From NCBI GenBank assembly GCA_965224245.1, contig OZ245046.1:4608001-4672000 (forward strand): a DNA stretch of 64,000 bases, written 5' to 3'. Positions 8,995 to 45,598 of this stretch are shown piece by piece. Under the pieces are notes generated by a model, which saw nothing but the letters and a program-made list of their open reading frames with translations, searched no databases and was not told the origin of the DNA. The number at the start of each line of letters is the position of its first letter. The stretch's first letter is position 1. The DNA comes from Candidatus Eiseniibacteriota bacterium (GTDB taxonomy: Bacteria > Eisenbacteria > RBG-16-71-46 > CAZAMP01). A program made the position numbers and the translations under genes.

Positions 8995-9000
8995 GCGACG

Positions 9001-28536: not shown

Positions 28537-30431
28537 CCCACCGATCCGGCCTCCATCCCCTCCGCCGCGCCCCGGCTCTCACGGCCGCTCTGGTCGGATG
28601 CGGTCTTCTCGCCGCGACGGCCGGCCGCGCCGCCGACAGCCAGCCGGCGGCGCCTCGCGCCGGCGACGTGGCGTCGCTCGGTGCCGGATACAAGGGGTGG
28701 GAGGTCGCGAGCCTCTCGATCGAGGGCGTGGACGACGCGCTCGTATCGGGCCTGAAGGACGGCCTCGCCTTCGAGGGTCGCGTGCGGTGGTTCCGGCGCC
28801 GGCGTCCCCCGCTCTCCCCGTCGCTCATCCGCGACGACATGGATCGCATCCAGCTGTTCATGGCGCGTCACGGCCATCCGTTCGCGGAGGTGACGCCCGG
28901 GTTCCACGAGCGCGACGGGGCGCGACGGGTCGACCTGACGTTCCGGGTCGACCCCGGGCCCGAGGTGACGGTCAGCGAGGTGGTGTTCGACGGCGTGCCC
29001 GACGCCCTCGCGGCCGACGTACGCGACGCGAACACCCTCCACGCCGGCATGCCGTTCGAGGACGCGGCCACCGCGGCCACCGCCGCCCGGCTCGCAGAGC
29101 TCCTCCGGAGCCGTGGCTACGCCGACGTCGGCGTCGACCCGGCGCTGGAGCGCACCGCGCCGTACGAGATCCGGCTGCGCTATCGCGTCGCCCCCGGACC
29201 GCGCTACACGATCACCGGCGTCGACGTACGTGGCGCCCCGGACGATCTCACCACGCTCTCGCACCGCGTCATCGGCATCCGGCCAGGCACGCTGTACTCG
29301 CCGAAGCTCCTGGCCGATGCCTCGGATCGCCTGCAGCGGCTCGGTCTCTTCCGCCGCGTGCGCCTCCGCACGGTGGCGCACGTCGATTCGAGCGGCGGTA
29401 GCCGCGGCCGTGGCGCGACCGGGACGCTCGACGTCATCGCCGAGCTGACCACGCGCGAGTATCGCACCTGGAAGGTCGCGCTCGGATACGTGACCGACGA
29501 GGGTCCTCGTGCCCGCGCGAGCTGGCAGCACCGGAACCTCCTCGGCGGGGGGCGCGCGTTCGCGATCACCGGCGGATACTCGTCGATCGAGCAGTCGATC
29601 GCCGCGTCCGTGCGACGGCCGGCGGCGTTCGGCCCTCGCACGAGCACGCGTGCGCGCATCGCATACCGCCGTGAGGACGAGGAGAGCTTCCGCGCGATCA
29701 CCGAGGAGCTGGAGGTCGGCCTGACCTACCAGCACAGCGCGATCACCGAGCTGGATCTCCGCGCACTGGCGTCACGCGTGGATCTGGACGCGCTGTCCGA
29801 GGAGATCGACTACGGGGGAACACCGGGCGTGCTGTCGGTGTTGTCCGCGAGTGCCCTGCGCAACACGGTGGGTGATCGCCTCTCGCCGAGCTCGGGCACC
29901 CGGCTGGGGATCACGGTCGACTGGACGCTTCCGGGTGCGCTGTCGGACAACCACTTCCTTCGCGTGGACGCGCTCGCGGTGGGGTACCTCGCCCTCGGCG
30001 AGTCGACGGTCCTGGTCGGTCGCGCCCGGAGCGGCCAGGCGTTTCTGCTCGGCGATGCGTCGTCGTTGATCCCGAGCTGGCGCTTCTTCGCCGGTGGTGC
30101 GCGCTCGATGCGCGGCTTCCGGCGGAACCGACTGGGGCCGCTCGACGCCGACAACGCGCCGCTCGGAGGCGAGGCCCTGGTGGAGCTGGGGGCCGAGGTG
30201 CGACGCACGCTGATCGGCCGGTTCGACGTCGCGGCGTTCATCGACGCGGGACAGGTGTTCTCGCCGCGCGACACGCAGACGCTGGGGGAGCTCGAGGCCG
30301 CCGTCGGTCCCGCACTGATCGTGCGCACGCCCATCGGCCCCGCGCGCCTGGACGTCGGCTTTCGACTCACCGACGTGGTGCCCGATCAGCCCGAGTCGGC
30401 CATTCACGTGTCCATCGGTCATCCGTTCTAG
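28533..30431 (+). CDS. tamA: BamA/TamA family outer-membrane protein
   Basis: POTRA-like repeats, HRNLLGGG, RFFAGGARSMRGF, TPIGPARLDVG, C-terminal GHPF. Confidence 0.88.
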   Translation: MTHRSGLHPLRRAPALTAALVGCGLLAATAGRAADSQPAAPRAGDVASLGAGYKGWEVASLSIEGVDDALVSGLKDGLAFEGRVRWFRRRRPPLSPSLIRDDMDRIQLFMARHGHPFAEVTPGFHERDGARRVDLTFRVDPGPEVTVSEVVFDGVPDALAADVRDANTLHAGMPFEDAATAATAARLAELLRSRGYADVGVDPALERTAPYEIRLRYRVAPGPRYTITGVDVRGAPDDLTTLSHRVIGIRPGTLYSPKLLADASDRLQRLGLFRRVRLRTVAHVDSSGGSRGRGATGTLDVIAELTTREYRTWKVALGYVTDEGPRARASWQHRNLLGGGRAFAITGGYSSIEQSIAASVRRPAAFGPRTSTRARIAYRREDEESFRAITEELEVGLTYQHSAITELDLRALASRVDLDALSEEIDYGGTPGVLSVLSASALRNTVGDRLSPSSGTRLGITVDWTLPGALSDNHFLRVDALAVGYLALGESTVLVGRARSGQAFLLGDASSLIPSWRFFAGGARSMRGFRRNRLGPLDADNAPLGGEALVELGAEVRRTLIGRFDVAAFIDAGQVFSPRDTQTLGELEAAVGPALIVRTPIGPARLDVGFRLTDVVPDQPESAIHVSIGHPF

Positions 30432-30442
30432 GAAACACCGCC

Positions 30443-33400
30443 ATGACGAACGAGCCCGCCAGCGCACCGCCCGATCCTCCGGGGCCACCGGCGTCCCCGT
30501 CGACGTCACCGCCGCGACGGCGTCGCTGGATCCGGCGGATCGCGGGAACGATCGGGCTGCTGCTCGCGTTCGTGGTGCTGATGGTGCTGGTGTTCACGCT
30601 CGTTCCGGCTCCCAGGGAGCATCTGCTGCGAACGGCGCTCGCTCGCGTCGGCTCGGACTTGCCGGGACGGCTCGTCATCTCGCAGACCGAGTGGCCCGCG
30701 CTGGGCCGCATCTCGGTAGCCGGCCTGGTGTGGACCGAGGCGGGCGACACGCTGGCCGCCGCCGACTCGATCCAGGTCGCCGTGTCGCTCGGCGCCCTGG
30801 CGCGACGGGACGCCATCGTCGAGCGGCTGATGATGCGCGGCCTCACGCTGGACGTTCCCGCCATCCAGGGCCGGTTCGAGACGCCGCGCATCCGGGACAT
30901 CCCCGACGAGGTCCGCAACGCGCCGGAGGTTCCGTTCTTCAGATCGGGCTCGATCGCGGGGCTACCGTCGGTGGCCGTGCGCGGCATCGACCTCGACGTC
31001 AGACGCGTGCGTGCGTCCGAGAGCATGGTCGTGACCGACGCGCGCGCGATCGGACACGTGACCGCGCTGGCCGGCGTGGCGGCGAGTGCGACGCTCGGGC
31101 CGCTTCGCCTGCGCCTTCCCGCCGAAGACGCCGCGATCGAGGACGTGCGTCTCGACATCGACATCGCGACCGGCACCATCAGCGGCAGCGGACACGGGTT
31201 CGTGACGTCGACCTGGCCGTTCCGCTTCGACGCTACCACCAACACGAGCGGGCACGTCACGCTGCTGCTCTACGAGGACGGAGGCGAACCACCTCCGGCG
31301 GGCTTCGGCGTCCGCCTCGACGGCACACTCGGGGTCGCCGACGACCGGCTCGAAACGGCGTCGTTCACGACGACGATCGTAACGCCGGCACCGGACCGGA
31401 TGGCGCGAGACCCCCGCATCGCGCTGCCCCCCGCGCTGGGAGACGTGGGATCGGTCGCGATCTCGATCACCACCGAGATCGATCTCCGGAACGGGCTGCG
31501 TGCCGACGCCACGGGACGTTTCACCCCCAACGCCTGGCTCGAGGCCGGCGACTTCGTGGTGTCGCGGCGCCCGAACGGCGACCTCGACGCGTCGCTGGAC
31601 GTCACGCTCGACCAGCTGCATCTCGCGCTCTCGCATCGCGCGGTCGCCGGGGCCGATCCCGTGTCGACCCTGGACGCCCGCGTGCGCGGACTCGGGTTCC
31701 TCGACGCTCTCCTCTCGTCCGACGTCCTCTCCGGAAAAGAGCGGCCCGACTCGATCGACGTCGCCACCCACCTGTCGGTGACGGGACCTCCGACCGATCC
31801 GGAGGTCTCGCTCCGCACACGGCTGGCCGGACGCCACGCCGGGGTCGTCCTGGACTCGGCCGCCGTGCGGGTGGACCGGCGCCGCGGAGCGGACTGGTGG
31901 TCGCTCGCGCTCGTGGCCGATGCCATGGGTCTCAGAGCCGACGTCCTCGCGGACGTCGCGCCCCCGGCGGCGCTGATGGCGAGCGTCTCGGGGTCCGGCT
32001 CGGGGACCGGCACCGGCGCACCCGGATCGCGCACGAACGCGCTCGACGCGAACACGTCGTCTCCGGCGTCGGCAGCACCTCCCACCCGATCCCCGCCCTC
32101 CGGCGACCTCGCCACCGATGCCGGCGCATGGCGCGTGAAGCTCGCGCCGGTCCGGATCCTCGACCTCGAGGTCCGGGGCCGGCACCGGATCCCGATCCCG
32201 GATCGCCGGCGCGGACTGCCGCCCGATCCCAACCTCACGGCCCTGCCCGATCCCCTGACCATCGATGCCCGGGGCGTCGAGCTCGTGGGCGACCTCGGCG
32301 ACGTCACCCTCACCACGTCGCTCACCGCCGCACGCGGCGGCGAGACGACGCTGGAGATGCGCTGGCCGGCGCCGCCGAGCCGGGTCACGCCGCCGTGGCC
32401 GGCGGATCGCGCGATGGACGATCCGGTGTGGGCCGCGTGGCAGTCGCCTCCGACGCCGGGAATCAGGGTCACGGCGCGACTCGACTCGCTGACCCCGGAC
32501 GCGACGTTCGACGTGACGGGAACCGCGATCCTGCCCGGCCCGCGCACGTGGGCCTCTCGTCTGCCGGAGAACGCGGCGGTCCTCGATCTGGGCGAGGTGC
32601 GCGCGCGCTTCGACGCGCACGGCTCGGCATCGGACCTGGTCGCGCGAATCGACCTCTCCGAGACCGCGTGGATCGATACGCTCTTCGCCGATCTCCGCCG
32701 CCAGGACGACCGCGCGGTCCTCGACACGCTGGGGCTCGTCGTCGACGACGTCGCGCTCGGCGCCCGGGGGTCGGTCGTCGGCGAGATCGTGGACGCGACC
32801 GCGCGGCTGGATCTCGGCGGGCTCTCGCTGGTACGCCGCCTGGCGCCGGGTCTGCCGGACTCCCTTCACGTCACCGCGCGGAGCGACGTGGCGGTGAGCG
32901 GGCCATCGTCGGCGGCCCGTGTGGTCGCAAGCACGCGCGGCAGCGTCCTCGCCGGTCCGCTCCGCGCGCCGGCGCTCACGAGCGACGTCACGATCGAGGG
33001 CGGCCGACTCCGGACCGCGTTGGTGGTCACCGACACCGTGACGTCGATCGGCGACGTCACCGTGGATCGGTTCCGGGCGGCGTACGCCCCGACGCCGGGA
33101 GCGACGTCACCGACGTCCGGCCGGCTTCGCGTCGACGCCAGCGGGCCCGGCGTGTCGGTGACGCACCAGGCCCACATCGACGCGGCCGACACGATCACGA
33201 TCGACGCGGACACGCTCGTGGTCGTGGTCGGCGAGCGCGATCTTCGCGCACGCCGACCGTTCGCGATCCGCGTGAGCCCCGAGGCCGGCATTCTCGAGGT
33301 CGACTCCCTGAGCCTCGAGGGGTCGATGGGCACGATCCGGGCAAACGGTCGCTCGGCGCCCGACTCCACCACGCTGACCGCCCGCGTCGACGTGCGGGTT

Positions 33401-35260
33401 CCGGATCGTCCCGAGTGGATCGACGTCCCGGACGGGCTCTGGCCCGGCGGCCTCACGATCACACTCGACGCCCTGGCGGACGGGCTCCTGGCGCTGCGCG
33501 CGAGCCTGACCGGGCTGGCGATCGGGCGCGCCACGCCGCTGGCCCTCTCGGCCGATCTTCGCAACGAGCGCGGAGCGTTCACGGCGGCACTCACCGTCAG
33601 CGACGAATCGACGTCGACCGAGCTCGCCGGCCTGGACGCCTCGATCCCGGCCTCGTTCACGCGCTTCCCGGCCGCGTTCCGCGCCGTGCCCGAGTCGCTG
33701 TCGATCGCGGCGCGGTGGTCCGACTTTCCGCTGCCGATCACGGGCGATCCCGAGCGGCTTCGAGCCGGCTATCTGTCCGGTGCCAGCACCGGCGTGATCC
33801 CGACCGCGACCGGAACGCTCCAGACGATGGACCTCGGCGACACGCCGGAGCTCCGCTTCGACACCACGATCCGGTTCCCCGAGCGAACCGAGCTGGCGCC
33901 CTACACGTTCGTGGCCAGCGCGCGGGTCCTCGGACGTCGCGGCGGGCAGACGATTCCGCTTCGCACGTCGGTGGAGAGCAAGCTCACGCGGGGCGACGCG
34001 ACCGTGTTCGATCTGACGACACGCGTCCAGCACCGTCTGGTCCTCGATGACGCGCGAGGTCCCCGTCCCGTCATCGCCGACTCCGACTCGATCCTCGTGC
34101 ACGTCGTATCCAGCGGCATCCGGCTCTCCGAGCTGGACGCGTTCCTTCCCGACGCCTACGCCCTGGACGGCGCGTTCACGTTCGATCTCGACGTGAACGG
34201 CACCTTCGCGAGGCCCACGTTCGACGGACACTTCGACACCAAGGCGCTGAGCGTGAGACTCCCCGACGGCACGTATGCCACCGTCGTCGGCTCGGCCCGG
34301 CTGACCGGCACCGGGATGGCGCCCCGCCTCGTGGGCTCGCTCGAGGTGAGCAACGCCGTCATCAACATCCCCGCGGAGCAGAGGACCCTTCTGCCCAAGG
34401 ACGGCACCGCGATGCTCTGGGACGAGCAGGCCTTCCGCCTGGCGTTTCACAAGGGACCCGTGGCGACCGCCGGGTTCGGGAACGTCGGTCCAGAGCCCCG
34501 GCGGCTCCCGTCCCCGACGCGCTCACCGCTCGAGCTCCTGCCGAAGGACACGGTCGTGGACGTGGGGGTGCGCTTCCCCGGGCGATTCTGGCTGCGCGGT
34601 CGGGGACTCGACGTCGAGCTGGCGGGAGCGCTTCAGCTCGCGCTCCAGGAGGGCGTGCCCACGGTCGTGGGTGAGCTCGGTCCCACCGGGGGCGTTCTCG
34701 TGGTGCTGGGTCGGACGTTCCAGGTACAGGAAGGCCGCGTGGTGTTCTATGGACAGGACGAGTTCGATCCGACGCTGGACCTGTCGATGACGTCCACGCT
34801 CGACGACGTCGTGGTGACGGTGCACATGGGCGGCACGGTGCTGGAGCCGTCGCTCGAGCTGAGCTCGGTGCCCGAGATGGAGGAGGGCGACATCATGTCG
34901 CTGCTCCTGTTCGGAAAGCGCATCGACGATCTCGACACGGGCCAGACCGCACTCCTGGAGTCACGCGCGCTCGACCTGGCCCAGACGTTCGCGGCGGCGC
35001 AGGTGGAGCGCGCGATCACGCGTGAGCTCGGCGTGGACCTGGTGCGGGTTCGGCAGAGCGAGGACAGCGGCTCCGCGTCGCTGGTCATCGGCAAGTACCT
35101 GAGCCCGAAGGCGCTCCTCAAGTACGAGCAGGAGATCCTGGAGGGACAGGGCGCGTCGTTGACGCTGGAGTATCAGCTCGCGCGGCGGCTGAAGCTGGCG
35201 ACCTTCCTGAGCCGCTACTTCACGTCGGGCGCCGAGGTGCAGTGGTCGGTCGACTACTGA
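30443..35260 (+). CDS. tamB: Translocation/assembly module TamB
   Basis: N-terminal TM; long beta-rich body; C-terminal DUF490-like LRGRGLDVEL...LSSVP...IMSLLLFGK...IGKYLS. Follows tamA. Confidence 0.88.
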   Translation: MTNEPASAPPDPPGPPASPSTSPPRRRRWIRRIAGTIGLLLAFVVLMVLVFTLVPAPREHLLRTALARVGSDLPGRLVISQTEWPALGRISVAGLVWTEAGDTLAAADSIQVAVSLGALARRDAIVERLMMRGLTLDVPAIQGRFETPRIRDIPDEVRNAPEVPFFRSGSIAGLPSVAVRGIDLDVRRVRASESMVVTDARAIGHVTALAGVAASATLGPLRLRLPAEDAAIEDVRLDIDIATGTISGSGHGFVTSTWPFRFDATTNTSGHVTLLLYEDGGEPPPAGFGVRLDGTLGVADDRLETASFTTTIVTPAPDRMARDPRIALPPALGDVGSVAISITTEIDLRNGLRADATGRFTPNAWLEAGDFVVSRRPNGDLDASLDVTLDQLHLALSHRAVAGADPVSTLDARVRGLGFLDALLSSDVLSGKERPDSIDVATHLSVTGPPTDPEVSLRTRLAGRHAGVVLDSAAVRVDRRRGADWWSLALVADAMGLRADVLADVAPPAALMASVSGSGSGTGTGAPGSRTNALDANTSSPASAAPPTRSPPSGDLATDAGAWRVKLAPVRILDLEVRGRHRIPIPDRRRGLPPDPNLTALPDPLTIDARGVELVGDLGDVTLTTSLTAARGGETTLEMRWPAPPSRVTPPWPADRAMDDPVWAAWQSPPTPGIRVTARLDSLTPDATFDVTGTAILPGPRTWASRLPENAAVLDLGEVRARFDAHGSASDLVARIDLSETAWIDTLFADLRRQDDRAVLDTLGLVVDDVALGARGSVVGEIVDATARLDLGGLSLVRRLAPGLPDSLHVTARSDVAVSGPSSAARVVASTRGSVLAGPLRAPALTSDVTIEGGRLRTALVVTDTVTSIGDVTVDRFRAAYAPTPGATSPTSGRLRVDASGPGVSVTHQAHIDAADTITIDADTLVVVVGERDLRARRPFAIRVSPEAGILEVDSLSLEGSMGTIRANGRSAPDSTTLTARVDVRVPDRPEWIDVPDGLWPGGLTITLDALADGLLALRASLTGLAIGRATPLALSADLRNERGAFTAALTVSDESTSTELAGLDASIPASFTRFPAAFRAVPESLSIAARWSDFPLPITGDPERLRAGYLSGASTGVIPTATGTLQTMDLGDTPELRFDTTIRFPERTELAPYTFVASARVLGRRGGQTIPLRTSVESKLTRGDATVFDLTTRVQHRLVLDDARGPRPVIADSDSILVHVVSSGIRLSELDAFLPDAYALDGAFTFDLDVNGTFARPTFDGHFDTKALSVRLPDGTYATVVGSARLTGTGMAPRLVGSLEVSNAVINIPAEQRTLLPKDGTAMLWDEQAFRLAFHKGPVATAGFGNVGPEPRRLPSPTRSPLELLPKDTVVDVGVRFPGRFWLRGRGLDVELAGALQLALQEGVPTVVGELGPTGGVLVVLGRTFQVQEGRVVFYGQDEFDPTLDLSMTSTLDDVVVTVHMGGTVLEPSLELSSVPEMEEGDIMSLLLFGKRIDDLDTGQTALLESRALDLAQTFAAAQVERAITRELGVDLVRVRQSEDSGSASLVIGKYLSPKALLKYEQEILEGQGASLTLEYQLARRLKLATFLSRYFTSGAEVQWSVDY

Positions 35261-35270: not shown

Positions 35271-37889
35271 TCAGAACTCGAAGCGAAGGTGCTCGTCGTG
35301 GCCCGCGGCGATCGTGATGGTCCGGATGTCCGGCGTTCCGAGGCGGCCGCCGCGGCTGACGCTGACGACGTGCGTGCCGCAGGGCAGCTCCACGTCGCGC
35401 TGCGGGGTCCGAAGCGCCAGTCCGTCCCGCGTGAGCTCCTCGCCGTCGACCAGGATCAGATCGTTGCCTCCGGACGTGATCGTGATCCGGCCGATGCACC
35501 CGGCGTCGGCGGCGCGTGCATCGTCGGCCGCGCCCGGGTCGATCGTCGCCGCGCCCGGGTCGATCGTCGCAGTGCGCGGGTCGATCGTCGCAGTGCCCGC
35601 GTCACCCCGTGTCGCGTCACCCGCGTCTCCCGGCTCGGACGAACCCGGGTCGTCCGGATCGTCGCGACCGCCGCGAGCGAGCCCGCTTCGATCGCGCTGG
35701 ACGAGCTCGACGTGCTCGGTGTGGACGTCGCCGCGTCGCAGGCGGACCGATTGGGTGTCGGGGACGTACCCCTCGAGGCTGACGCGGATCTCGACCGTCC
35801 CGGACCCCTCGTCGTCCAGCGGAACGTTCGCGTCGCGGACGGGAAGACGCCCCACGTCCTCGCCGTCGACCGACACGAGCGCGCCCGCCGGGCTCCCCTC
35901 GACGGTCAGCGACGCGCCTTCACGCGACAGAACGAGGGGCGGGACGTCGACCGACGCGCCGCGACCGACCTCGACCTCGCGCTCGGTGGTCGCATATCCC
36001 TCCCGGGTCGCGCGGATGGTGTACCGCCCGGTCTTCAGGGTCACGAACGGCGAGGCGGACGAGAGCACGACGTCGGTCTCGACGACGACGACCGTGGCGT
36101 CGGGCGGGTTCAGCTCGGTCAGATGCAGGGTCCCCTTCGCGAAGCCGAAGCTCACGATCGCGTATCCGATCAGCACGAGCACCGCCAGGGCCAGGAACCC
36201 GATCACGACCTTGCGGCCGGAGGCGCCCCCGCCGGCGTCGGGGGCGGCCGGGGTCGGGCTCGGGCTCGCGCTCGGGCGCCGGGGAGGTGACGGCTCCGGT
36301 TTGCGCGGGGGCTCGGAGGCGTCGTCCCTCGGGGGAGGTTTGGACGCCGCGCCACCCGCCGGCCCCTGCGGCGATCCCGTTTGCCCCAGTCGCGTGGCAT
36401 CGTCCGCCGAGGTGGGGCCGGTCGACGACCGGTGCGCCGGTGACGGATCCGACACGTCGCGCGGCGACGAGCCGGTGCGCGAGGGAACCGCACGCTGCGT
36501 GGCGTCGACGTCGTCCCCCGTCGGCGGAGGCGGAGCGGGCGGCGGTGAAGCGGGCGGCGACGGCGGCGGCGGCGGCGACTCCGGTGCGGTCGTTGCGCCC
36601 GAGATCGGACGCATCATGGTGGCGTCGTCGCCGGCCTCGTCGTGCGCGTCGCGACCGGGGGTCTCGCGGCCTCGTGCGATCACCGTCGCGTCATCCGCGG
36701 CATCTCCGACGGGTCGGGCGTCGGCCGGAGAAGGACCCGGGTGCCGTGCGGCCGCGGCGGTTCCGGACGCCTCGATGACGCGCGCCGCACCTTCGGTCAG
36801 CACGGCGCGCAGATCGTGCACGTTCTGTGACGCGAGGATTCGCACCAGCTCGGCCTTCATCTCCAACGCTTCGGGATGTCGCGGATTCAGCTGCAGCACG
36901 GTCGCCAGCACCTGGAGCGCGTCGCGGGCCTTCTGCTCCCCGAGCGCCAGCAGGTTGTGCGCGCGCAGGAGATTGCTCTGGACCTCCTTCTCCGAGAGCG
37001 CGTGGGCGACGCCGTCGGGGTCGGCCGCGAAGCGCGCGAGCAGCTGGCTTCGCCCCGCGATCGCGGCCTGCTCGACGTAGCGATCCAGCCACTGGTGCAC
37101 GGCGGCGGCGTCGCGCGGGCGCGCGTCGGGGTCCTTCGCGAGAAGCTGATGCACGAACTCCGAGAGCTCGCGGCTCACCAGCGGATTGCGTTCGTGGAGC
37201 GCCGCCGGCTGGTCGCGCAGGATCGCCGTTTGCACCGCGGGAACGGTGGATCCCGCGAACGGTCGCTCGCCGGCCAGAAGCTCGTAGGCCACGATGCCGA
37301 ACGCGAAGAGGTCGGCTCGCGGGTCCACGTGTCCGCCGGCGATCTGCTCGGGGGCCATGTAGGCCGGCGTACCCACGGACTGGTTGCCGGTCGACAGCGT
37401 GGACGACGCCTCGCGTGACCTGGCCAGCCCGAAGTCGGCGAGCTTGGCCACGCCCGCCGTGGAGAACATGATGTTGGACGGCTTGACGTCGCGGTGGAGA
37501 ACGCCCTCGGTGTGCGCCGACTCGAGCGCGTCCGCCACGTCGGCGAGCACGAGGAGCGCCACGTCGCGCGGGAGCGGCCGTACCGACTTCAGGACGTCCG
37601 CCAGCGTCGAGCCGTCCACGTACTCCATCGACAGGTACGGCGGATCGTGCTGCCGGGCGAACTCGATGACCTTGACGATGTGCGCGTTGTCGAGGACGGC
37701 GGCCGACCGGGCCTCGAGCTCGAAGCGGGCGAGAAAGTCGGTGTCGTCCGCGAGGTGCGGGTGGATCACTTTGATCGCGCGGCGCGCGCCGAGCGAGAGC
37801 TGCACGCCCTCGTAGACGGTACCCATCGCACCCGACGCGACACGGCGCTTGATGTCGTATCCGGGGATCGTCGGGAATGCTGCCGGCAC
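35271..37889 (-). CDS. Hanks-type Ser/Thr protein kinase with TM helix and extracytoplasmic PEGA-like domains
   Basis: SGAMGTVY, AIK, HRDVKPSN, DFGLA, GTPAYMAPE. Pro-rich linker, TM, then TREGY and SLEGY PEGA-like repeats. Confidence 0.93.
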   Translation of the reverse strand: MPAAFPTIPGYDIKRRVASGAMGTVYEGVQLSLGARRAIKVIHPHLADDTDFLARFELEARSAAVLDNAHIVKVIEFARQHDPPYLSMEYVDGSTLADVLKSVRPLPRDVALLVLADVADALESAHTEGVLHRDVKPSNIMFSTAGVAKLADFGLARSREASSTLSTGNQSVGTPAYMAPEQIAGGHVDPRADLFAFGIVAYELLAGERPFAGSTVPAVQTAILRDQPAALHERNPLVSRELSEFVHQLLAKDPDARPRDAAAVHQWLDRYVEQAAIAGRSQLLARFAADPDGVAHALSEKEVQSNLLRAHNLLALGEQKARDALQVLATVLQLNPRHPEALEMKAELVRILASQNVHDLRAVLTEGAARVIEASGTAAAARHPGPSPADARPVGDAADDATVIARGRETPGRDAHDEAGDDATMMRPISGATTAPESPPPPPSPPASPPPAPPPPTGDDVDATQRAVPSRTGSSPRDVSDPSPAHRSSTGPTSADDATRLGQTGSPQGPAGGAASKPPPRDDASEPPRKPEPSPPRRPSASPSPTPAAPDAGGGASGRKVVIGFLALAVLVLIGYAIVSFGFAKGTLHLTELNPPDATVVVVETDVVLSSASPFVTLKTGRYTIRATREGYATTEREVEVGRGASVDVPPLVLSREGASLTVEGSPAGALVSVDGEDVGRLPVRDANVPLDDEGSGTVEIRVSLEGYVPDTQSVRLRRGDVHTEHVELVQRDRSGLARGGRDDPDDPGSSEPGDAGDATRGDAGTATIDPRTATIDPGAATIDPGAADDARAADAGCIGRITITSGGNDLILVDGEELTRDGLALRTPQRDVELPCGTHVVSVSRGGRLGTPDIRTITIAAGHDEHLRFEF
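35530..35592. repeat. Three 21-bp tandem repeats within the kinase C-terminal region
   Basis: G(C/T)GC(C/G)CGGGTCGATCGTCGC(C/A) x3, encoding ATIDP heptads. Confidence 0.8.
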
Positions 37890-38243
37890 GGTATGCGTCC
37901 TCGTGGGGGATCGACCGCGGGCAGACTAGCAGAGCGCCGGCGACGGCGCCACGCGCGTCGGACACCCGGGCCGCGCGTTGCGGATGTCATTGGTAGGCGC
38001 GCGGATACGGTGGGGTGGAGGACCAGGGCTCTTCGAGTTTATCAGTCGTTTTTTAAACGTCTCGATACGCACTTTCGTGCTTCCGCTTCGGCCGGGCCTC
38101 GATGGCCCGCCGCTCGGGCGTGGTGGAAGTGCGCGGGGTCGGTCCGCGTCATGAGGATCACGCCTTTCGCCGCCGTCGGCCGGTGAACTAGACTCGGACG
38201 CGGTTCGAGACCGGCTTCCCCCTCAGCAAGCGATGGATCGGTA

Positions 38244-39191
38244 GTGGTAGAGCAGGCCCTTCCCACGTCGGGATCCCAGCCCGACCCCGATTTCGACACG
38301 CTCCTGACCCGGGCCAAGGCGGGGGATCGGACGGCATGCGACCGCCTCCTGCGCTCGGTCGAACGCGACATGCGGGCCCGGATCGGCGCCCGCATCCAGG
38401 GACGCTCGGACATCGATCGGGACGAGGTCCTCCTCGACGCCCAGGTCTACCTGTTCGAGAAGATCGGCGTGTTCGACCCCGCGATGGGCACGTTCCGCGC
38501 CTTCGCGCTGGGACTCACGAACACGATCATCCGCCGCCTCTGGGACGGCAAGCCCATCGAGAGCCCCGTCTTCCGGACGAAGGACGGCGAGCTCGACGTC
38601 CTCACCGAGCCCGATCCGGGGATGCTCGAGGGACTCGACGAACGCCTGCGATCGGTCGTGGGGGCCGATCACGTCGTCCACGCCGGCGCCCGCGCGACGC
38701 CGGGCGACGTCTTCCTGGAGACGCTGGCGCTGTTCTTCTCCGAGGGCGGCTACCCGCACCAGCAGATCGCGTTCGCGTTCAGTCAGCTCATCTGGGGTCA
38801 ACGCAAGACCGAGCTGAAGGGGGCCAAGACGTCGCGGACGCCTCTCTGGGGGGCGGCGGACCGGGTCGTCAAGGAGGTGTCGGACTGGGCGCTCGAGAAC
38901 GCCAGGGGGGACTTCATCGACGAGCTCGAGGAGACGCTGGGGCTCGACCACGACTTCCTGGACCGGATGTCCGAGCCGATGCGCCGTCGGCTCGAGCTCC
39001 TTGGCCGGGTCCTCTTCGAGAAGGACGCCACCTCGCGCGAGCTGTTCAGGACGCTTCTCGACCGGAGGATCGGCGAGACCCGGCTCTCGGACTACTACGG
39101 CGACGAGCCGACGAAGTCCGTCGCCAACTGGACCCGGCTGGTCAAGAACAAGATTACCAAGGCGTTGGAACGGCAGGAGATCGCCTCTTGA
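38244..39191 (+). CDS. Atypical ECF-like RNA polymerase sigma factor
   Basis: Region 2-like LLTRAKAGDRTACDRL...DRDEVLLDA...FDPAMGTFRAFALGLTN. Sits directly upstream of a zf-HC2 protein. Confidence 0.6.
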   Translation: MVEQALPTSGSQPDPDFDTLLTRAKAGDRTACDRLLRSVERDMRARIGARIQGRSDIDRDEVLLDAQVYLFEKIGVFDPAMGTFRAFALGLTNTIIRRLWDGKPIESPVFRTKDGELDVLTEPDPGMLEGLDERLRSVVGADHVVHAGARATPGDVFLETLALFFSEGGYPHQQIAFAFSQLIWGQRKTELKGAKTSRTPLWGAADRVVKEVSDWALENARGDFIDELEETLGLDHDFLDRMSEPMRRRLELLGRVLFEKDATSRELFRTLLDRRIGETRLSDYYGDEPTKSVANWTRLVKNKITKALERQEIAS

Positions 39192-39345
39192 GCGACCCGG
39201 GATGCCAGACCGGCCGGAAAACGGCCCGACCCCGCCAGAACTCGACGGCGGCGTCGGTAGTCGTCGCGAGTTCAGGAGCCCGCCCGGGCTTCATGGTCAC
39301 GATGACGCCCCCGGCCCGCCGGGGCTCCGATCCAGGACTTTCGCC

Positions 39346-40107
39346 ATGACGCATCCAGGACGAGACACCCTTCTCGCCTTCGTGTCGGGACGCACCGACG
39401 ACGCCGACGCCGAGGCCGTGTACCAGCACATCGCGGAGTGCCCGCGGTGCGAGCGCCGGGTCGACGCGCTTCGCGTCCTCCGGGATCGCTTCGACGAGAG
39501 CTGGTCGTTCTTCGAGAGCGTCCTTGGCGACGTGGCTCTGAGCTTCGAGGAGAAGCGATTTCGCGCGTCGACGAACGCGATCGTGGTGGACTTCAAGGGA
39601 CTGATCGACGCCGGCCGCCGGCTCGCGATCGCGGCGCGCAACACCGTCGCCGACGCGGCCGCCCAGGCCGCCGGTGCGTTCGACGGTCGACTCGCGCCGG
39701 CCTACGGTGGTGTCGGCGACGTTCCCGCCGGGGACCCGGCCACACCTCACGTCGAGCGGGCCGCCGAGCTCATCGGTGCGGCCGACGTGGACGCCGCACG
39801 CGCCGAGCTCGAGACCGCGCACGCGCGCGACCCCAGATCCACCGGCGTCGTCGAGCTGGATCTGACCTGGCACGACGAGGTCTGCGGCAAGCTCGTGGTC
39901 AACGCCCCCCGTCGTCGCCTGTCGGTGCTCGTACACCCGCGCGCCGAGTTCGCGGCGGGCGCGGTGCGTCTTCGCGGTGAGGGCTACGACGAGCATCGCG
40001 CGCTCGAGCCGGTGGAGGGCGCCGCGTATCTCCTCGCGGAGTTCGACGCCGTGCCCGACGGTGCGTTCGACGTGGCGCTGGTCCTGGCCCCGACGGCGAC
40101 CGCGTAG
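39346..40107 (+). CDS. zf-HC2 (ZAS) anti-sigma-like protein
   Basis: MTHP..LLAFVSG...HIAECPRC (HxxxCxxC). No TM helix evident. Confidence 0.75.
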   Translation: MTHPGRDTLLAFVSGRTDDADAEAVYQHIAECPRCERRVDALRVLRDRFDESWSFFESVLGDVALSFEEKRFRASTNAIVVDFKGLIDAGRRLAIAARNTVADAAAQAAGAFDGRLAPAYGGVGDVPAGDPATPHVERAAELIGAADVDAARAELETAHARDPRSTGVVELDLTWHDEVCGKLVVNAPRRRLSVLVHPRAEFAAGAVRLRGEGYDEHRALEPVEGAAYLLAEFDAVPDGAFDVALVLAPTATA

Positions 40108-40214
40108 CAGTCGCGTCGCGCGCACGGCCGGTCCGCTCGGTCGTGCGCCTCGGCTCGTCCACGCGCATCCCTCGCGCTCCAGGGACGTCCCCTGCACCGT
40201 GATATAGTCCCCGG

Positions 40215-41723
40215 ATGCCTTCACGATTTGCCCATCGTGACATCGACTACGAGATCGACTACCACCCGGCCTACTCGTATGCGCTCGACATGGCCGGGCT
40301 ACCGCTGATTCCGTCGATCACCGTCTCGAACCGACGCGCGCACCCGAGCCCGAGGCACGTCGTCTCGTTGTCGGTGCTCGAGCATCCGATCCGGGCCGAG
40401 GCCGTCGTCCCAGAGCTCGACGCCGGCGCGACCGCCACCACGGTGCCGCGCTTCGGCAGCAGCCTCACCGACCACCTCGAGCGCCTCGTTCAACCGATCC
40501 GCAACACCCTGGGCGTCACGATCGACGGCGCGACGGTCGCCGAGCTCCCGTTCCTGGCGCTGGATGCCTGGCGGTGGCCCCACACGCGACGGGCCCGCGC
40601 AGCGTGTGCGGCGTACGTGCTGCCGCACGAGGCCGAGGTCGCCCAGACGGTCGTGGAGGCCGGCGTGTGGCCGATGCATGCGCGCCACGATCCCACGCGC
40701 ACGAGCACGACGACGTTCACGGCGACGGCGACCGGTGATCCCGTGCGCGCGATGACGTCGCTCTATCGAGTCCTTCACACGTCGAACTCGGTCATCTACG
40801 AGATCCCGAAGGTGGAGCGCAGCCCGGAGCTCTCGGTGACGTTCCAGGTCGTGCGCGCACCCCATCTCATCCGGCCGTCGCTGTTCGCCGGACCGTCGCG
40901 CGGGAACTGCTTCGACCTCACCGCGTTCTTCGCCTCGTGCCTGGAGGCGATCGGACACACCCCTCTGATCATCTTCACCGGCGCGCTGGACCAGGCGCCG
41001 ACCCACGCGTTCCTCGGCTGCTGGACCCACGCCGAGCCCCGTCACGTCCCCGTCATCGATCGCAAGGCCGAGCTCCTGCGCGTGGTCGACGCGGGCGAGA
41101 TGGTCATCCTCGAGTGCACCGGCGTGTGTCGCGACCGCCAGTATCGGCTCGAGTTCGATGCCGCCCGCGATCGCGCGCTCGACATCCTGCGGTCGATGTC
41201 GCGCATTCACGCCATCGACGTCGCGACCTGCCGGCCACCGACCGGATCGGTGCGGCCGCTGGAGCTGGCGTTCGAGCCGGTGGTCCGTCGCGCCGTCTGG
41301 GAAGGGGAGCGCTTCCGCGAGCGCATGCGCCAGCGGGCGCTCGAGGGCACTCACCTTTTGTACGGGCTCTGCGCAGCCGGGAGCACCGAGTTCGACGAGA
41401 TCGTGACCGCACTGGGATCGAGCCCCGCGCGCGTGGCGGCGTTCATCGAGGAGTCGACACCGATCGGCGATCACACGGGCGCCCACGCGGTGACCGGCAA
41501 CTATCGCCGGGCGTTCAGCGACGCACGCGAGCGCGCGCGACTGCACGGACGCCGAACCGTCCGTGAGGCGGATCTCATCTGGGGCGTCGCGCGGAGCCAG
41601 TCCGCACGTCTGCACTACATCCTCGAGCAGTCGGGGTTCTCGATCGATGCGCTGCGGAGCGAAATGGCGCTCAGGTACCCCGAGGGCGACGAGACGGAGT
41701 CGATTCACGTTCCACGATCGTGA
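40215..41723 (+). CDS. Transglutaminase-like/papain-fold domain fused to C-terminal Clp N-terminal repeat domain
   Basis: GNCFDLTAFFASCLEAIG...HAFLGCW...LECT. C-terminal ClpN-like LEGTHLLYGL and AFSDARERARLHG..VREADLIWG. Confidence 0.7.
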   Translation: MPSRFAHRDIDYEIDYHPAYSYALDMAGLPLIPSITVSNRRAHPSPRHVVSLSVLEHPIRAEAVVPELDAGATATTVPRFGSSLTDHLERLVQPIRNTLGVTIDGATVAELPFLALDAWRWPHTRRARAACAAYVLPHEAEVAQTVVEAGVWPMHARHDPTRTSTTTFTATATGDPVRAMTSLYRVLHTSNSVIYEIPKVERSPELSVTFQVVRAPHLIRPSLFAGPSRGNCFDLTAFFASCLEAIGHTPLIIFTGALDQAPTHAFLGCWTHAEPRHVPVIDRKAELLRVVDAGEMVILECTGVCRDRQYRLEFDAARDRALDILRSMSRIHAIDVATCRPPTGSVRPLELAFEPVVRRAVWEGERFRERMRQRALEGTHLLYGLCAAGSTEFDEIVTALGSSPARVAAFIEESTPIGDHTGAHAVTGNYRRAFSDARERARLHGRRTVREADLIWGVARSQSARLHYILEQSGFSIDALRSEMALRYPEGDETESIHVPRS

Positions 41724-41729
41724 ATCGAC

Positions 41730-44195
41730 TCACGGCGACCTCCCCAGCGTCCAGCCCGTCATCTTCCGCATGAAGTCCTGCAGATCCTCGGTGTGGCGGT
41801 TCCGGAACGTCCAGAGCTGCGTTCCGATCCACACGACTCGACCCTGAGGCTCTCCGAAGCTGCGGAACCGGGTCACCACCGGCTCCCGGTCGAGCGACGA
41901 GCCGAAGGTGGTGCCGCACACCTGGGTCACCGAGTCCGACTGCTCATACGCCCACGCGTTCGGAATGAACGTGTACAGCGTGTCCAGTCCCGCGCGCAGG
42001 AGCGGCGGGCTTCCGGTCATCGGCGTCGCGCCGACGTCGCCGAAGCGGTTCCGGGCACCCATCCATCGGTTCGTCCACAGGCCCCGGCGTTCGGGGTCGT
42101 ATCCGGTGGGATCGAACCTCCACGGCAGTCCGAGGGCGATCGCCTTCTCGGTCGGCTCCATGCCCACGATGCCGCTGCACTGCGTGCGGAGGCTCGGAGG
42201 CCCGGCGCGTCCGATGCGATCGAACTGCGTCCGCATCTGCATCACGTCCCACAGGAACGTGCCCGGGCCGAAGTTCGGTGACGGAAACTGCGGCAGCTCC
42301 GGCGTGTAGGGATCCGCCGGATAGAGATCGCCGAGGAGCGAGCCGATGGTCGTCGTTCCCCACACGACGAGTCCCCCACCCGCCCGCACGTAGAGCGAGA
42401 GGAACTTCCCCTGGGGTGCTCCGGGCTCGGGGTCGGTCACGTGGCCCAGGAGGCTGGGGTTGGGGCCCCCTGCGGCGGCGACGTTCCAGAAGAGGAGCTT
42501 GTACCGACTCAGCTCCGAGAGCGTGATCTCGCTCACGGCGTCCGACTCGGCGCACTCGCCCGCGAACACGTGCGCGTCGAAGCGATACAGGGGCTCGCCG
42601 AGCTCTCGATAGGGATCGATCGCGTACTCGAGCATGTTGCCCACGAACACGTCGTGCTCGCAGTCGCGAACCCCGGCCACCTTGTAGTCGTCCACCCACA
42701 GGGCGGTCCGATCGAAGGAGAACGCCACGACGTCCATCACGATCGTCGCGACCACCGTGTGGCTCGGGTCGTGCGTCTCGTCTCGCGCCCGGATGTACAG
42801 CACGTGCTGCTCACCGGCCTGGTCGTCGGTGAACATGATGTCGCCGACGACGCGGTCGTGGTTGCCCCATCCGATCCACCCGCCGCGTCCGTCGTCGGAC
42901 TGGCACACCTCGCACTCGGGATCCTCGATGTCGAGCGCGTAGTTGAGATCCGACACCTCCGAGCCGTAGCTCGCCGCGCTCGCCGTCCACTCGAACTTCA
43001 GCGGCACGTTCGCCGGCACCTCGACCCGCCAGGTGAGTCCCCGACTCACGAACGTGCTCGAGCCGAGGAAGGACTTCTCGGTCACGGTCAACGTCGGCGT
43101 GGATGGATACGACGGATCCGACTGGAACTTGACCACGTTCCCCTCGACTCCCGTCGTGGTGACCACGAGCTCGCGATCGGGTGAGATGGCGCCGGCCTCG
43201 TCCACGGCCCGGATGGCGAAGGCGTACTCACCCGGAGGGACGCTCCGGAGCTGGAGCTGCTCGAACGGATAGGGCTCCCCCGCCTTCGGCCACCAGTCGG
43301 TGGCGAGGTACGTGCTGTCGGTCACGGCATCGGGCTCGGACACGACCTGTTCGTTGGGGATCAAGAGGTTCTCGCGGGCGATCAGGAAGTGCGTGAAGTA
43401 GCGGATCACGAGCGCGTTGTCGTCGAACACCGAGTCGATGGGCACGAGCTTCATCTGGTAGCCGATCGGCTTGTCGTTCGGGTCGGTGCTGTCGTCGTCG
43501 CGACCTTTCCACCGCGTGGTGAGAAACGAGCCGAGCGTGGTGAATCGTTCGAGTCCCTCACCGACCGGGGTCACGAGCTGTGCGGTGGGCGCGATCGTCA
43601 CGGCGTTGAACGAGCGCGAGTCGGGTCTGGAGACGCCCCCCCGGTTGTCGATGGCCCGGATGAAGAACCGGTGCCACTCCGACGCGAGCGGTGGGCTCGT
43701 CGTCCCCGCGATCTCCTCGGCGGCCGACATCACGAACTGGCCCGAGTAGGTCTCGACGCGCTTCCAGAGAGAATCCGCCGCTTCCTGGACGGGGTCGAGT
43801 CCCAGCGCGCGGCAGCTGTCGGCGTCCTGGATGCAGACGACGTCGTCCACACTTACGAGGGCGCCGTCCCGGCCGCGGGCCCGGATCGTGCGCGTGCCCT
43901 CGCACAGACACGTGTCGTCGATCGCGTACTCGAAGTGGCTGATCGTGCCGTCGGCGTCCGACCCGAACCAGTAGAACTCGACCCGGTAGTCGGTGGTCTC
44001 TCCGTTGGCGGTGCCGCCGGTGATCCGCACCGTCGGAGGCTCGTTCGGCTTCAGCTTCGCGTCGTGTGGCTCCCACTCGCAGCCGAGCGCCACCAGCACC
44101 GCGACCGCGGCGCCGATCACGGGCCCGATCGCGACCCGGACGGTGCCCCCGGCGCTCCTTCTCCGCCCCGCCTGGGAGCTCGGGATCGGTCTCAT
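41730..44195 (-). CDS. Large lipoprotein with Ig/FN3-like repeats and a C-terminal alpha/beta domain
   Basis: VLVALG-C lipobox; WFGSDADG, FFIRAIDN, FAIRAVDEAG. ATG 44195 is coupled (ATGA) to the upstream stop. Confidence 0.8.
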   Translation of the reverse strand: MRPIPSSQAGRRRSAGGTVRVAIGPVIGAAVAVLVALGCEWEPHDAKLKPNEPPTVRITGGTANGETTDYRVEFYWFGSDADGTISHFEYAIDDTCLCEGTRTIRARGRDGALVSVDDVVCIQDADSCRALGLDPVQEAADSLWKRVETYSGQFVMSAAEEIAGTTSPPLASEWHRFFIRAIDNRGGVSRPDSRSFNAVTIAPTAQLVTPVGEGLERFTTLGSFLTTRWKGRDDDSTDPNDKPIGYQMKLVPIDSVFDDNALVIRYFTHFLIARENLLIPNEQVVSEPDAVTDSTYLATDWWPKAGEPYPFEQLQLRSVPPGEYAFAIRAVDEAGAISPDRELVVTTTGVEGNVVKFQSDPSYPSTPTLTVTEKSFLGSSTFVSRGLTWRVEVPANVPLKFEWTASAASYGSEVSDLNYALDIEDPECEVCQSDDGRGGWIGWGNHDRVVGDIMFTDDQAGEQHVLYIRARDETHDPSHTVVATIVMDVVAFSFDRTALWVDDYKVAGVRDCEHDVFVGNMLEYAIDPYRELGEPLYRFDAHVFAGECAESDAVSEITLSELSRYKLLFWNVAAAGGPNPSLLGHVTDPEPGAPQGKFLSLYVRAGGGLVVWGTTTIGSLLGDLYPADPYTPELPQFPSPNFGPGTFLWDVMQMRTQFDRIGRAGPPSLRTQCSGIVGMEPTEKAIALGLPWRFDPTGYDPERRGLWTNRWMGARNRFGDVGATPMTGSPPLLRAGLDTLYTFIPNAWAYEQSDSVTQVCGTTFGSSLDREPVVTRFRSFGEPQGRVVWIGTQLWTFRNRHTEDLQDFMRKMTGWTLGRSP

Positions 44196-45499
44196 CGGCC
44201 GCGCGACGCCACGTCGATCGCCGTGAAAGGGATCGTGACCGTCCGTCGCCGCCGTGCCATGTAGATGCCCGCGTCGCCGTCGTTCTGGCGGTCCATGATC
44301 TCGACCGTCAGCGTGTGCTCGGCCTCGTCCTCGGTCTGTGCGAAGAAGATCGGGAAGCACATCGGCGTCAGCTCGTCCGGCTCGGCCAGGGTGACGTCGT
44401 CGGTGATGAACTCGAACGGATCCAGGCTCCGGATGTCCTCGTCCACCGCCCAGCGCACGCCGTGCACGCGACCGGTGTGATCGCGGTCGCGGGCCCAGAT
44501 GATTGCGTCGATGGATCCGACCCGGTAGCCGTCCGCCTCCGGCGCGGAGAACTCCATCTCGATGACCTGACCCGGCTGCGGGATGCCTTGGTAGTCCAGG
44601 ACCGAGACGTCGGCCCGATCCCACCCTCCCCAGTAGACCGTCTGGACGGCGCACGGCACCGCCGAGGGGGCCGCGCTCTGCTCGCGGTACACCTTGTACA
44701 GGGTGTCCCGATCGCAAACCCGGAGGCTGTCGCCGAACGAGGCGGCGAGACGATCGCACTGGCGCGTCGGGATGCCGTCCTCGCGAAACACGAACACGGG
44801 ACCCCGGTCGATGTGCACGTCCAGCGTGTCGACGCCGAGCGAATCGTGGACGCCGTCGATGTTCTCCGCCGCGATGACCACGCGCCAGTCGCCCGAGAGC
44901 AACGGTCCCACGACGACGCTGGATCGGTCCTCGGTGAACGAGCACCGCCACAGTCGCGTGGAGCAGGACCCGTCGAGGCTGTTGCAGTCCATGACCATCG
45001 TGTCCAGCGCCCAGCCCAGCTCGGGCGCGTCCTCTTCGTTCACCTCGACGTCGATCTCGATCCACCACTCGGCGAACGGGTTCTCGGGGATGGCCAGCGT
45101 GTCGCGCGCGTCGATGTAGCCCTCGGGCAGACACGCGTTCGAATCGGGCACCGGCATGTTCTGGAGCGAGGGATCCCACGGGGTCACCACCGGGGAGCAG
45201 GGATCGCCGTCGTAGCTTCTGGTGGCCAGACGATAGGCCTTGATGGTGTCGGCGCCGCAGGTCGTCGCGGTCCGGCCGATCCAGAGCCACCGCTCGCGCT
45301 CCGCAGGGTCTACCGGATCGTCGGGATCATCGGGATCGTCCGGGTCGTCGGGGATCTCGTCGGGCACCGGCTCGGTGGCATCGTTGCGGTCGCACCCGGC
45401 TCCGAGCCCGAGCGAGACGAGAACCGTCCCGAGCGCGAGGGCACCGAAGAGCAGGCGCCGGCCGGGGGCGGCATCGTGTCTCATCGTCCTCATCATCAT
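44192..45499 (-). CDS. Hypothetical Cys-containing lipoprotein
   Basis: LGLGAG-C lipobox followed by a (DDP)4 linker. Start uncertain among several nearby Mets. Confidence 0.75.
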   Translation of the reverse strand: MMMRTMRHDAAPGRRLLFGALALGTVLVSLGLGAGCDRNDATEPVPDEIPDDPDDPDDPDDPVDPAERERWLWIGRTATTCGADTIKAYRLATRSYDGDPCSPVVTPWDPSLQNMPVPDSNACLPEGYIDARDTLAIPENPFAEWWIEIDVEVNEEDAPELGWALDTMVMDCNSLDGSCSTRLWRCSFTEDRSSVVVGPLLSGDWRVVIAAENIDGVHDSLGVDTLDVHIDRGPVFVFREDGIPTRQCDRLAASFGDSLRVCDRDTLYKVYREQSAAPSAVPCAVQTVYWGGWDRADVSVLDYQGIPQPGQVIEMEFSAPEADGYRVGSIDAIIWARDRDHTGRVHGVRWAVDEDIRSLDPFEFITDDVTLAEPDELTPMCFPIFFAQTEDEAEHTLTVEIMDRQNDGDAGIYMARRRRTVTIPFTAIDVASRGR

Positions 45500-45598
45500 C
45501 CTCCCATCAGCCCCGACCCCGGCCGCATTCTACTCCAGATACCCCGTCCGCGCCGAATCGTGCGCGGGCCCGGGGGGCCGCCCGGCGGCGCGCCCCGG

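Follow-up and report, generated by a model that had tools for sequence, protein, structure and literature searches.

In a 64,000-nucleotide stretch of the genome of a Candidatus Eiseniibacteriota bacterium (contig OZ245046.1, positions 4,608,001 to 4,672,000; the window, in which positions are counted from the first letter), four genes lie together that are probably linked in function. They encode a membrane Ser/Thr kinase of the Hanks type, a sigma-like protein, a soluble protein resembling zinc-binding anti-sigma (ZAS) factors, and a predicted thiol enzyme fused to a Clp N-domain (ClpN). We also put forward, at somewhat less than even chances, that phosphorylation gates the cleavage or modification of the anti-sigma factor and that this step frees the sigma-like protein. 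Two associations of the enzyme family stand behind these proposals, both resting on sequence comparison. First, the family appears tied to Ser/Thr phospho-signaling, a tie supported by fusions to FHA and to kinase domains and by a kinase gene near the enzyme gene of a second locus, L060. Second, it appears tied to the sigma-like family, which is supported by cases of adjacency or fusion.

The enzyme family is associated with kinases and with sigma-like proteins

An exhaustive HMMER search recovered 495 representatives of the enzyme family, which has no name, at an E value of ≤0.001; 83 of them were found at E ≤ 1e-30. Most of these representatives matched over their full length, and in many the N terminus is longer by about 120 amino acids (aa). 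Pfam domains were counted in the best 150 of the 495 representatives, the window's protein included. An N-terminal FHA domain is present in 58 of these 150 proteins, Clp_N in 55, and a fused Pkinase domain in 3, and Sigma70_r2, PEGA, NUDIX, and RyR were each found in a single protein. FHA domains bind phosphothreonine; because of them, the enzyme family as a whole would read the marks left by Ser/Thr kinases, and some of its members carry the kinase themselves. In rare cases (P0105, P0089, P0120, P0113, and P0119), the enzyme-ClpN unit is fused to NUDIX, PEGA repeats, an AAA domain, or a Pkinase-TPR-TPR-S arrangement; P0113 additionally has RyR, and P0119 has a MAP3K_TRAF_bd-like region.

Two loci besides the window had useful neighborhoods. 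L060, a contig of a Deferribacteres metagenome-assembled genome (MAG), contains an FHA-enzyme-ClpN gene that aligns with the family profile over its full length (E = 4.7e-130) and is followed downstream, two genes later and on the same strand, by a kinase-TPR gene. In L030, a MAG contig of 6.8 kb, three genes stand in a row: an FHA-like-enzyme-TPR-HATPase_c gene, a homolog of the sigma-like gene, and a homolog of the ZAS gene. The first of these (140-3904, plus strand) encodes a protein of 1,254 aa that ends in TPR repeats and HATPase_c, with no HisKA detected; through this HATPase_c domain, kinase input of another kind may reach the protein. The second (5187-6236; E = 1e-14) has the middle motif and the C terminus in common with the window's sigma-like protein, and the third (E = 1e-8) matches zf-HC2 and has the same four ligand positions as its counterpart in the window.

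The association with the sigma-like family extends to P0024, a protein of 768 aa in which the enzyme and the initial helices of ClpN are followed by about 75 low-complexity residues and then by a full sigma-like homolog (residues 444 to 751; 34% identity to the window protein, E = 8e-52). We suspect that a frameshift has joined two adjacent genes in P0024; whether or not it did, the two are neighbors. All three members of the sigma-like family that were found (in the window, L030, and P0024) adjoin or join the enzyme, and they do so in two gene orders. Word-index protein searches with the enzyme, with the sigma-like protein, and with a two-sequence alignment of the latter returned only the queries and the L030 protein.

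Gene calls and the membrane kinase

Since the G+C content of the window is about 70%, raw lists of open reading frames (ORFs) are full of spurious frames, and real genes were picked by the G+C content of third codon positions (GC3) and a frame plot. GC3 values of 0.87 to 0.92 indicate that 35271-37889 (minus strand), 38244-39191 (plus strand), and 40215-41723 (plus strand) are coding. The fourth gene was recognized from the frame plot: the frame of ORF 39001-40107 is coding from about 39350, with an ATG at 39346. Within the plus-strand unit, gaps of 154 nucleotides (nt) and 107 nt separate the sigma-like gene from the ZAS gene and the ZAS gene from the enzyme gene, respectively. This unit comprises three genes, because a run of minus-strand genes (41730-47944) converges on its end at 41723. 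The kinase gene is divergent from the unit, and both promoters presumably lie in the intergenic region of 354 nt between the kinase gene and the sigma-like gene (37890-38243). A promoter and terminator scan of 37700-42000 gave nothing with a sigma-70-type promoter model, which may not fit the host or its sigma factor. An initial reading of the bare DNA (the sequence-only reading) had proposed these four genes in this order, with the kinase gene divergent, and GC3, the frame plot, and the domain matches uphold that description.

The kinase (35271-37889, minus strand; 872 aa; GC3, 0.88) carries its catalytic domain at residues 11 to 264 (Pkinase, E = 2.8e-49 in Pfam), with the motifs HRD132, DFG152, and APE179 that place it among Hanks-type kinases. 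A long Pro/Ala-rich linker leads to a single hydrophobic stretch (about residues 555 to 588), beyond which lie PEGA (E = 9.9e-15) and CarboxypepD_reg-like domains (about residues 617 to 731 and further). By these features, it is predicted to be a membrane protein with a cytoplasmic kinase domain and an extracytoplasmic (periplasmic) sensor part. The membrane Hanks kinase of the sequence-only reading is thereby confirmed by the Pkinase match, the HRD, DFG, and APE motifs, and the one transmembrane (TM) segment.

A remote sigma-2 relative longer than ECF sigmas

The sigma-like protein (38244-39191, plus strand; 315 aa; GC3, 0.92) has an extracytoplasmic function (ECF)-type sigma-2 domain over about residues 15 to 100. 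Several lines of evidence point to it. A PDB search with a three-sequence profile gave 10 matches, 9 of which are ECF or related sigma factors, all over sigma-2, and the top match is CnrH (E = 2.9e-4). Weak NCBIfam sigma matches cover residues 15 to 82 (best E = 7.6e-4), with 19.3 bits for the best model against a cutoff of 267. A protein-language-model atlas scores the protein at 0.96 to clusters with Sigma70_r2/Sigma70_ECF. The PDB profile, NCBIfam, and atlas results agree with the earlier proposal of a sigma-2-bearing protein at this position. Pfam gave no match for the protein even at E ≤ 10; its homolog P0024 matches Sigma70_r2 (E = 2.3e-4). Because all of these matches fall under curated cutoffs, the kinship to sigma-2 is one of remote homology. 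At the place aligned with the acidic DAED motif of sigma-2.2, the protein has the residues D-R-D-E. A tblastn search against plasmids yielded nothing for it.

Compared with ECF sigmas, the sigma-like protein has about 100 additional aa. A conserved middle motif, GGYPHQQ..F..S.LIWG (residues 168 to 185), is common to all three members of its family, and the C-terminal helices (about residues 255 to 312) are possibly a degenerate sigma-4 helix-turn-helix. Pro-sigma-E and pro-sigma-K undergo processing, and by analogy, the enzyme could act on the sigma-like protein itself, with the conserved insert of about 150 aa that separates sigma-2 from the C-terminal helices keeping the sigma inactive until it is cut or modified. 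The additional length and the conserved motif would suit this scheme, as would the direct neighborhood of the enzyme gene and the sigma-like gene in P0024. Yet the ZAS-type partner present in two of the three cases is a simpler control point, and the protein shows no sign of a cleavage site. We therefore regard processing of a pro-sigma as improbable.

A soluble ZAS-type protein beside the sigma-like gene

The next gene (39346-40107, plus strand) encodes a putative anti-sigma factor of the ZAS type with 253 aa, called from the frame plot, its zf-HC2 match, and its zinc-ligand residues. The ligand set consists of H28-x3-C32-x2-C35 (HIAECPRC, residues 28 to 35) and an upstream fourth ligand, H3; the L030 homolog has the same four residues (H3, H28, C32, and C35). 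The zf-HC2 score is 22.3 bits against a Pfam cutoff of 22.2, and no TM-like window was found in the protein. The motif, this score, and the hydrophobicity scan confirm what the sequence-only reading had described as an HxxxCxxC protein without a TM helix. The ZAS gene adjoins the sigma-like gene both in the window and in L030, and sigma binding is putative. Over residues 4 to 47, the protein has weak NCBIfam matches to the ChrR family (E = 6.3e-4) and to RsrA (E = 3.9e-3), with scores far under the family cutoffs (19.6 versus 124.5 bits). The rest of the protein, about 190 aa, is helical and rich in Ala in one part, beta-rich at its C terminus, and matches no family.

RsrA and ChrR release sigma on oxidation. 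The four zinc-ligand positions, with ChrR and RsrA as the best matches, could accordingly mark an ordinary redox- or thiol-sensing sigma/ZAS pair, next to which the enzyme would be an operon passenger or a regulon member and the kinase would be unrelated. An enzyme without FHA and a four-gene set unseen elsewhere are what such a pair would predict. However, in two more cases with another gene order, members of the enzyme family adjoin sigma-like homologs or are fused to them; since L030 and P0024 keep the link in a different order, a functional tie is favored over a passenger. Moreover, the FHA and kinase fusions found across the family make it unlikely that the adjacency of the kinase is due to chance. 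Overall, we judge the redox pair to be an unlikely explanation and prefer the functional link among the four genes.

A predicted thiol enzyme fused to a ClpC-type N-domain

The last gene of the unit (40215-41723, plus strand; GC3, 0.87) encodes the thiol-enzyme/ClpN protein of 502 aa, whose assignment rests on its structure model and on family conservation. AlphaFold2, provided with 68 sequences, modeled it with a predicted local distance difference test (pLDDT) value of 93.5 and a predicted template modeling (pTM) score of 0.91. The model comprises a beta-sandwich (residues 1 to 122), helices and a transglutaminase/papain-like core (about 125 to 345), and a helical C-terminal domain (about 352 to 490). 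Residues Q211, C232, and H264 are invariant in the 68 sequences, and D234, E244, E300, and T302 are nearly so; the same catalytic-type residues are also conserved in family sets of 13 and 150 sequences. In the DNA, conservation delimits a predicted catalytic stretch at 40845-41114 (plus strand) with Q211 (40845-40847), C232 (40908-40910), D234, E244, H264 (41004-41006), and E300 (41112-41114). In the model, C232 opens a helix (232 to 245), H264 opens a strand (264 to 270), and E300 comes just after another strand (296 to 299).

The C-terminal domain (41268-41684, plus strand) is a Clp N-domain according to the model, Foldseek, and the family profile. In a Foldseek comparison of the model with the PDB, N-domains of ClpC/ClpC1 were the top matches (TM-target, 0.73 to 0.83; E values from 6e-6), and the family profile confirms a two-repeat ClpC-type N-domain (E = 4.4e-13), which Pfam Clp_N misses in the window's own protein. 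Single-protein sequence searches of the PDB gave one chance-level match each, and a profile of the N-terminal enzyme domain gave 2; when the enzyme model was compared with viral structures by fold, 0 matches were obtained at E ≤ 0.001. For the enzyme domain, atlas scores of 0.75 to 0.77 toward transglutaminase/papain-like enzymes are a lead only. Its kinship to transglutaminase/papain-like enzymes appears to be remote and finds its best support in the recurrent DUF553 and Transglut_core matches of homologs, which are given below. The invariant Gln, Cys, and His and these matches support a putative Cys-His enzyme of the papain/transglutaminase type, and Foldseek and the profile confirm the Clp N-domain joined to it, as first proposed.

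The same enzyme domain heads ProA-like proteins

Residues 21 to 352 of the enzyme match positions 1 to 315 of the NCBIfam model ProA (NF058533) with E = 1.9e-22, at 78.6 bits against a cutoff of 1500. We scanned species genomes with a degenerate motif from the enzyme domain and obtained at least 117 loci, nearly all of which encode ProA-like helicases. The enzyme domain is present in all 117 motif loci listed, in most of them as the N-terminal part of an ORF of about 1,900 to 2,200 aa. Among the matches listed, 80 loci have flanks, and in 58 of these the domain lies in an ORF of ≥1,500 aa (ProA type); the residues that the motif does not force are nonetheless retained (Q211 in 114 and H264 in 115 of the 117 loci, and E/D300 in all 101 that were aligned at that position). 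When 46 such domains were compared with Pfam at E ≤ 5, DUF553 was matched by 28 (best E = 3.3e-4) and Transglut_core by 21 (best E = 1e-3); any other Pfam family was matched once only. With the enzyme as the query, tblastn against plasmids retrieved ProA-like genes only (10 records).

Pfam lacks a dedicated model for the domain with Gln, Cys, His, and Glu or Asp in ProA-like proteins (L054, 2-1453, minus strand; L002). Identity of the enzyme domain with Pfam DUF4011 was considered and is ruled out, as the domain lies upstream of DUF4011 in both L002 and L054. The part of the Asgard Prometheus paper available to us gives four ProA domains and makes no mention there of this N-terminal domain (PMC13700489).

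Other arrangements of the domain were also seen. L002 (5737-13755, plus strand) holds one ORF of 2,673 aa with Pkinase at residues 452 to 657 and the thiol-enzyme domain at about 724 to 1051, followed by DUF4011, AAA_11/AAA_12, an MTES_1575 restriction endonuclease, and DUF3320. By virtue of this Ser/Thr kinase fusion, the link between kinase and enzyme reaches Prometheus-like helicase-nucleases. L041, L044, and L055 (about 8000-11100) encode proteins of 500 to 850 aa with a C-terminal enzyme domain and an adjoining DUF7379 gene, in what looks like another conserved two-gene arrangement. Three further proteins (L053, 9622-11730, minus strand; L065, 6249-8894, plus strand; and L071, 8444-11170, plus strand) combine either a weak CHAT (caspase-like) match with the enzyme domain or DUF4428 with the enzyme domain and DUF3320, without a helicase.

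The breadth of this conservation bears on whether the thiol domain is catalytic. ClpN domains that bind Clp partners exist, both on their own and in fusions, and ClpT1/T2 and ClpC2 are among the fold and profile matches of the window protein; it could thus be a noncatalytic adaptor whose ClpN brings either the anti-sigma factor or the enzyme itself to a Clp protease or to a ClpC partner that competes, with the thiol domain serving only to bind. Conservation of Q211, C232, H264, and E/D300 in the ClpN-bearing family as well as in ProA-like proteins speaks against such an adaptor. Because this conservation is hard to explain otherwise, catalysis is the predicted function, and we hold the adaptor to be very improbable.

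A role in conflict or defense has also been weighed. In this scenario, the thiol-enzyme domain would be a sensor or effector unit like the one at the start of Prometheus (ProA) helicase-nucleases, and the module would sense a cue derived from an invader, with the sigma-like protein as its transcriptional output and the kinase or FHA as regulators. The ProA profile match and the prevalence of ProA-type ORFs among the flanked loci are suggestive in this regard, as are the fusions to TPR-S, RyR, NUDIX, and AAA within the family, the related architectures with CHAT or a DUF7379 neighbor, and the joining of a kinase to a ProA-like protein in L002. The portion of the literature accessible to us describes ECF sigma factors linked to conflict systems (PMC8195603), and the accessible parts of two papers name transglutaminase-like peptidases, ClpN, and ECF sigmas in connection with such systems, though not arranged as in the window (PMC7159879 and PMC8195603). 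In contrast, the neighborhood in the window is one of housekeeping and envelope genes with no defense island, and the operon has no nuclease or other effector. PADLOC-DB 2.0 matches the kinase only, by generic kinase models such as PD-T4-6; 0 of its families match the sigma-like, ZAS, or enzyme protein. A defense sensor is therefore quite unlikely in our estimation.

Proposed mechanism and its standing

Phosphorylation-gated release of the sigma-like protein, the reading that we prefer, would proceed as follows. The kinase would sense an envelope cue through its periplasmic PEGA domains, and its substrate would be either the anti-sigma factor or the enzyme. By means of ClpN (of FHA in those relatives that have one), the enzyme would hold the marked target and would cleave or otherwise covalently modify it. 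The sigma-like protein, once freed, would direct transcription. Direct phosphorylation of the sigma, of the EcfP type, is not expected, since D-R-D-E is retained in the sigma-like protein. A complex prediction with the sigma-like protein, the ZAS protein, and residues 123 to 502 of the enzyme scored 0.00 against a mark of 0.32, which speaks neither for nor against the proposal.

Several observations weigh against this mechanism. The full four-gene set was seen in the window only and in no other locus examined: L060 has neither a sigma-like nor a ZAS gene, and the 6.8-kb L030 contig has no Hanks kinase. The adjacency of all three sigma-like family members to the enzyme is a biased count, because it was the enzyme that led to two of them. 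The window's enzyme has no FHA domain, the part on which the phospho-link depends in relatives, and taken alone, the adjacency of the kinase could be due to chance in a kinase-rich genome. Certain Glu residues of the ClpC N-domain, which we take to bind phospho-arginine, look unconserved in the ClpN profile alignment. The window's enzyme protein has no Pfam match at all, no solved structure in the PDB matches the enzyme domain by sequence or profile, and the PDB fold-search listing for the enzyme model held ClpN matches only. The role of the domain at the N terminus of ProA need not be proteolysis. Finally, sigma-4 was undetected in the sigma-like protein by Pfam, NCBIfam, or PDB profile search. 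The model of this protein built from three sequences is poor (pLDDT, 47.7), and its action as a sigma stays putative; a fold search with that model gave 0 matches at E ≤ 0.001.

The sequence-only reading had suggested one undescribed system in which phosphorylation is combined with proteolysis or cross-linking to control the release of the sigma. Comparison sustains the links between kinase and enzyme and between enzyme and sigma/ZAS genes, and it showed the whole four-gene set in none of the other loci examined. A bolder extension, which we consider doubtful, is that the enzyme represents a new class of cytoplasmic, phosphorylation-directed protease (or deamidase or transglutaminase) that frees a divergent sigma family from a zinc anti-sigma factor and also arms Prometheus. 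If this were true, one enzyme module would link Ser/Thr signaling, sigma control, and antiviral defense. Should the preferred mechanism hold, the release of a sigma factor would be achieved in a new way, by a dedicated thiol enzyme guided by phosphothreonine rather than by membrane site-1/site-2 proteases or by AAA+ Clp machines. The module also offers an initial functional handle on a family of 495 representative clusters and on the unannotated N-terminal domain of Prometheus, and it defines a sigma-like family that standard models overlook. With only four genes and a single predicted catalytic cysteine, it lends itself to direct testing.

Genomic surroundings

The surroundings in the window are housekeeping and envelope genes (TamA/TamB, aconitase, BipA, and FadL-like), with no defense island. 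On one side, 28533-35260 (plus strand) encodes an Omp85/POTRA (TamA-like) protein and then a TamB-family protein of 1,605 aa, whose stop is convergent with that of the kinase gene at a distance of 10 nt. On the other side, the minus-strand run converging on the enzyme gene has three members, namely a gene for an 821-aa protein (41730-44195, from an ATG at 44195) that contains "LVALGC" and has no Pfam match, a gene for a 435-aa protein with a lipobox-like N terminus (44192-45499), also without a Pfam match, and a gene for a Rax2-like beta-propeller protein (45599-47944). The minus-strand genes of 41730-47944 are possible regulon candidates.

Comparison with known systems

The sequence-only reading did not recognize this combination of genes. 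Our literature searches found no paper on it or on the FHA-enzyme-ClpN family, so that this point stands. However, the module is less isolated than had been supposed, as PknB, RseA, and ClpC1P2 form a published analog.

Sigma factors controlled by a neighboring kinase provide one comparison. In ECF43-type sigmas (EcfP-PknT and EcfK-PknS), the sigma gene adjoins the gene for a membrane Ser/Thr kinase that activates it; according to the accessible part of the source, these sigmas have no anti-sigma factor and, in sigma-2.2, a phospho-acceptor in place of the acidic DAED (PMC8999054). The window likewise has a sigma-like gene beside a membrane Ser/Thr kinase gene. Unlike ECF43 proteins, the sigma-like protein has D-R-D-E and a ZAS neighbor, which sets it outside that group.

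The ZAS protein resembles the anti-sigma factors of the ChrR/RpoE and RsrA/SigR pairs in that it is soluble and has HxxxCxxC with an upstream His. It differs from ChrR and RsrA in its C-terminal part of about 190 aa, which matches nothing, and in scores far under their cutoffs.

Three known families can be set beside the enzyme protein. Its enzyme domain has the same Gln, Cys, His, and Glu/Asp residues as Prometheus ProA (NF058533), and yet the window protein falls outside ProA, as it lacks DUF4011, the DNA2-like helicase, the restriction endonuclease, and DUF3320. As in Transglut_core and DUF553 thiol peptidases, a Cys at the N terminus of a helix, a His on a strand, and then an acidic residue are predicted by the model. 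In contrast to those peptidases, the enzyme has one more invariant residue, a Gln that precedes the Cys by 21 positions, its family mostly uses Glu as the acidic residue, and no Transglut_core or DUF553 model matches the window's enzyme itself. The C-terminal domain shares the two-repeat helical fold of ClpC/ClpC1 N-domains, whereas the AAA+ modules that follow in ClpC/ClpC1 are missing.

The closest parallel is found in Mycobacterium tuberculosis, where release of RshA and RseA, both soluble ZAS anti-sigmas, also follows their phosphorylation by PknB, as described in the accessible part of a published account (PMC8999054); its reference list includes Barik et al. (2010), a work on phosphorylation-dependent proteolysis of RseA by ClpC1P2 to judge from its title. 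As in SigE-RseA-PknB-ClpC1P2 and SigH-RshA-PknB, so far as that account covers them, the window encodes a sigma-like protein with an ECF-type sigma-2 domain, a soluble protein of the ZAS type, a membrane Hanks kinase, and a protein with a ClpC-type N-domain. Two differences from SigE-RseA-PknB-ClpC1P2 stand out. Namely, ClpN in the window is fused to a Cys-His thiol-enzyme domain rather than to an AAA+ unfoldase, and the genes are clustered and include one for an atypical sigma-like protein of 315 aa in which sigma-4 is undetected. The logic of kinase, soluble ZAS, ClpC-type recognition, and proteolysis is thus known, and what is new is the thiol-enzyme family and the sigma-like family. By analogy, the module of the window would be an ATP-independent, dedicated counterpart of the PknB-dependent degradation of RseA by ClpC1P2.

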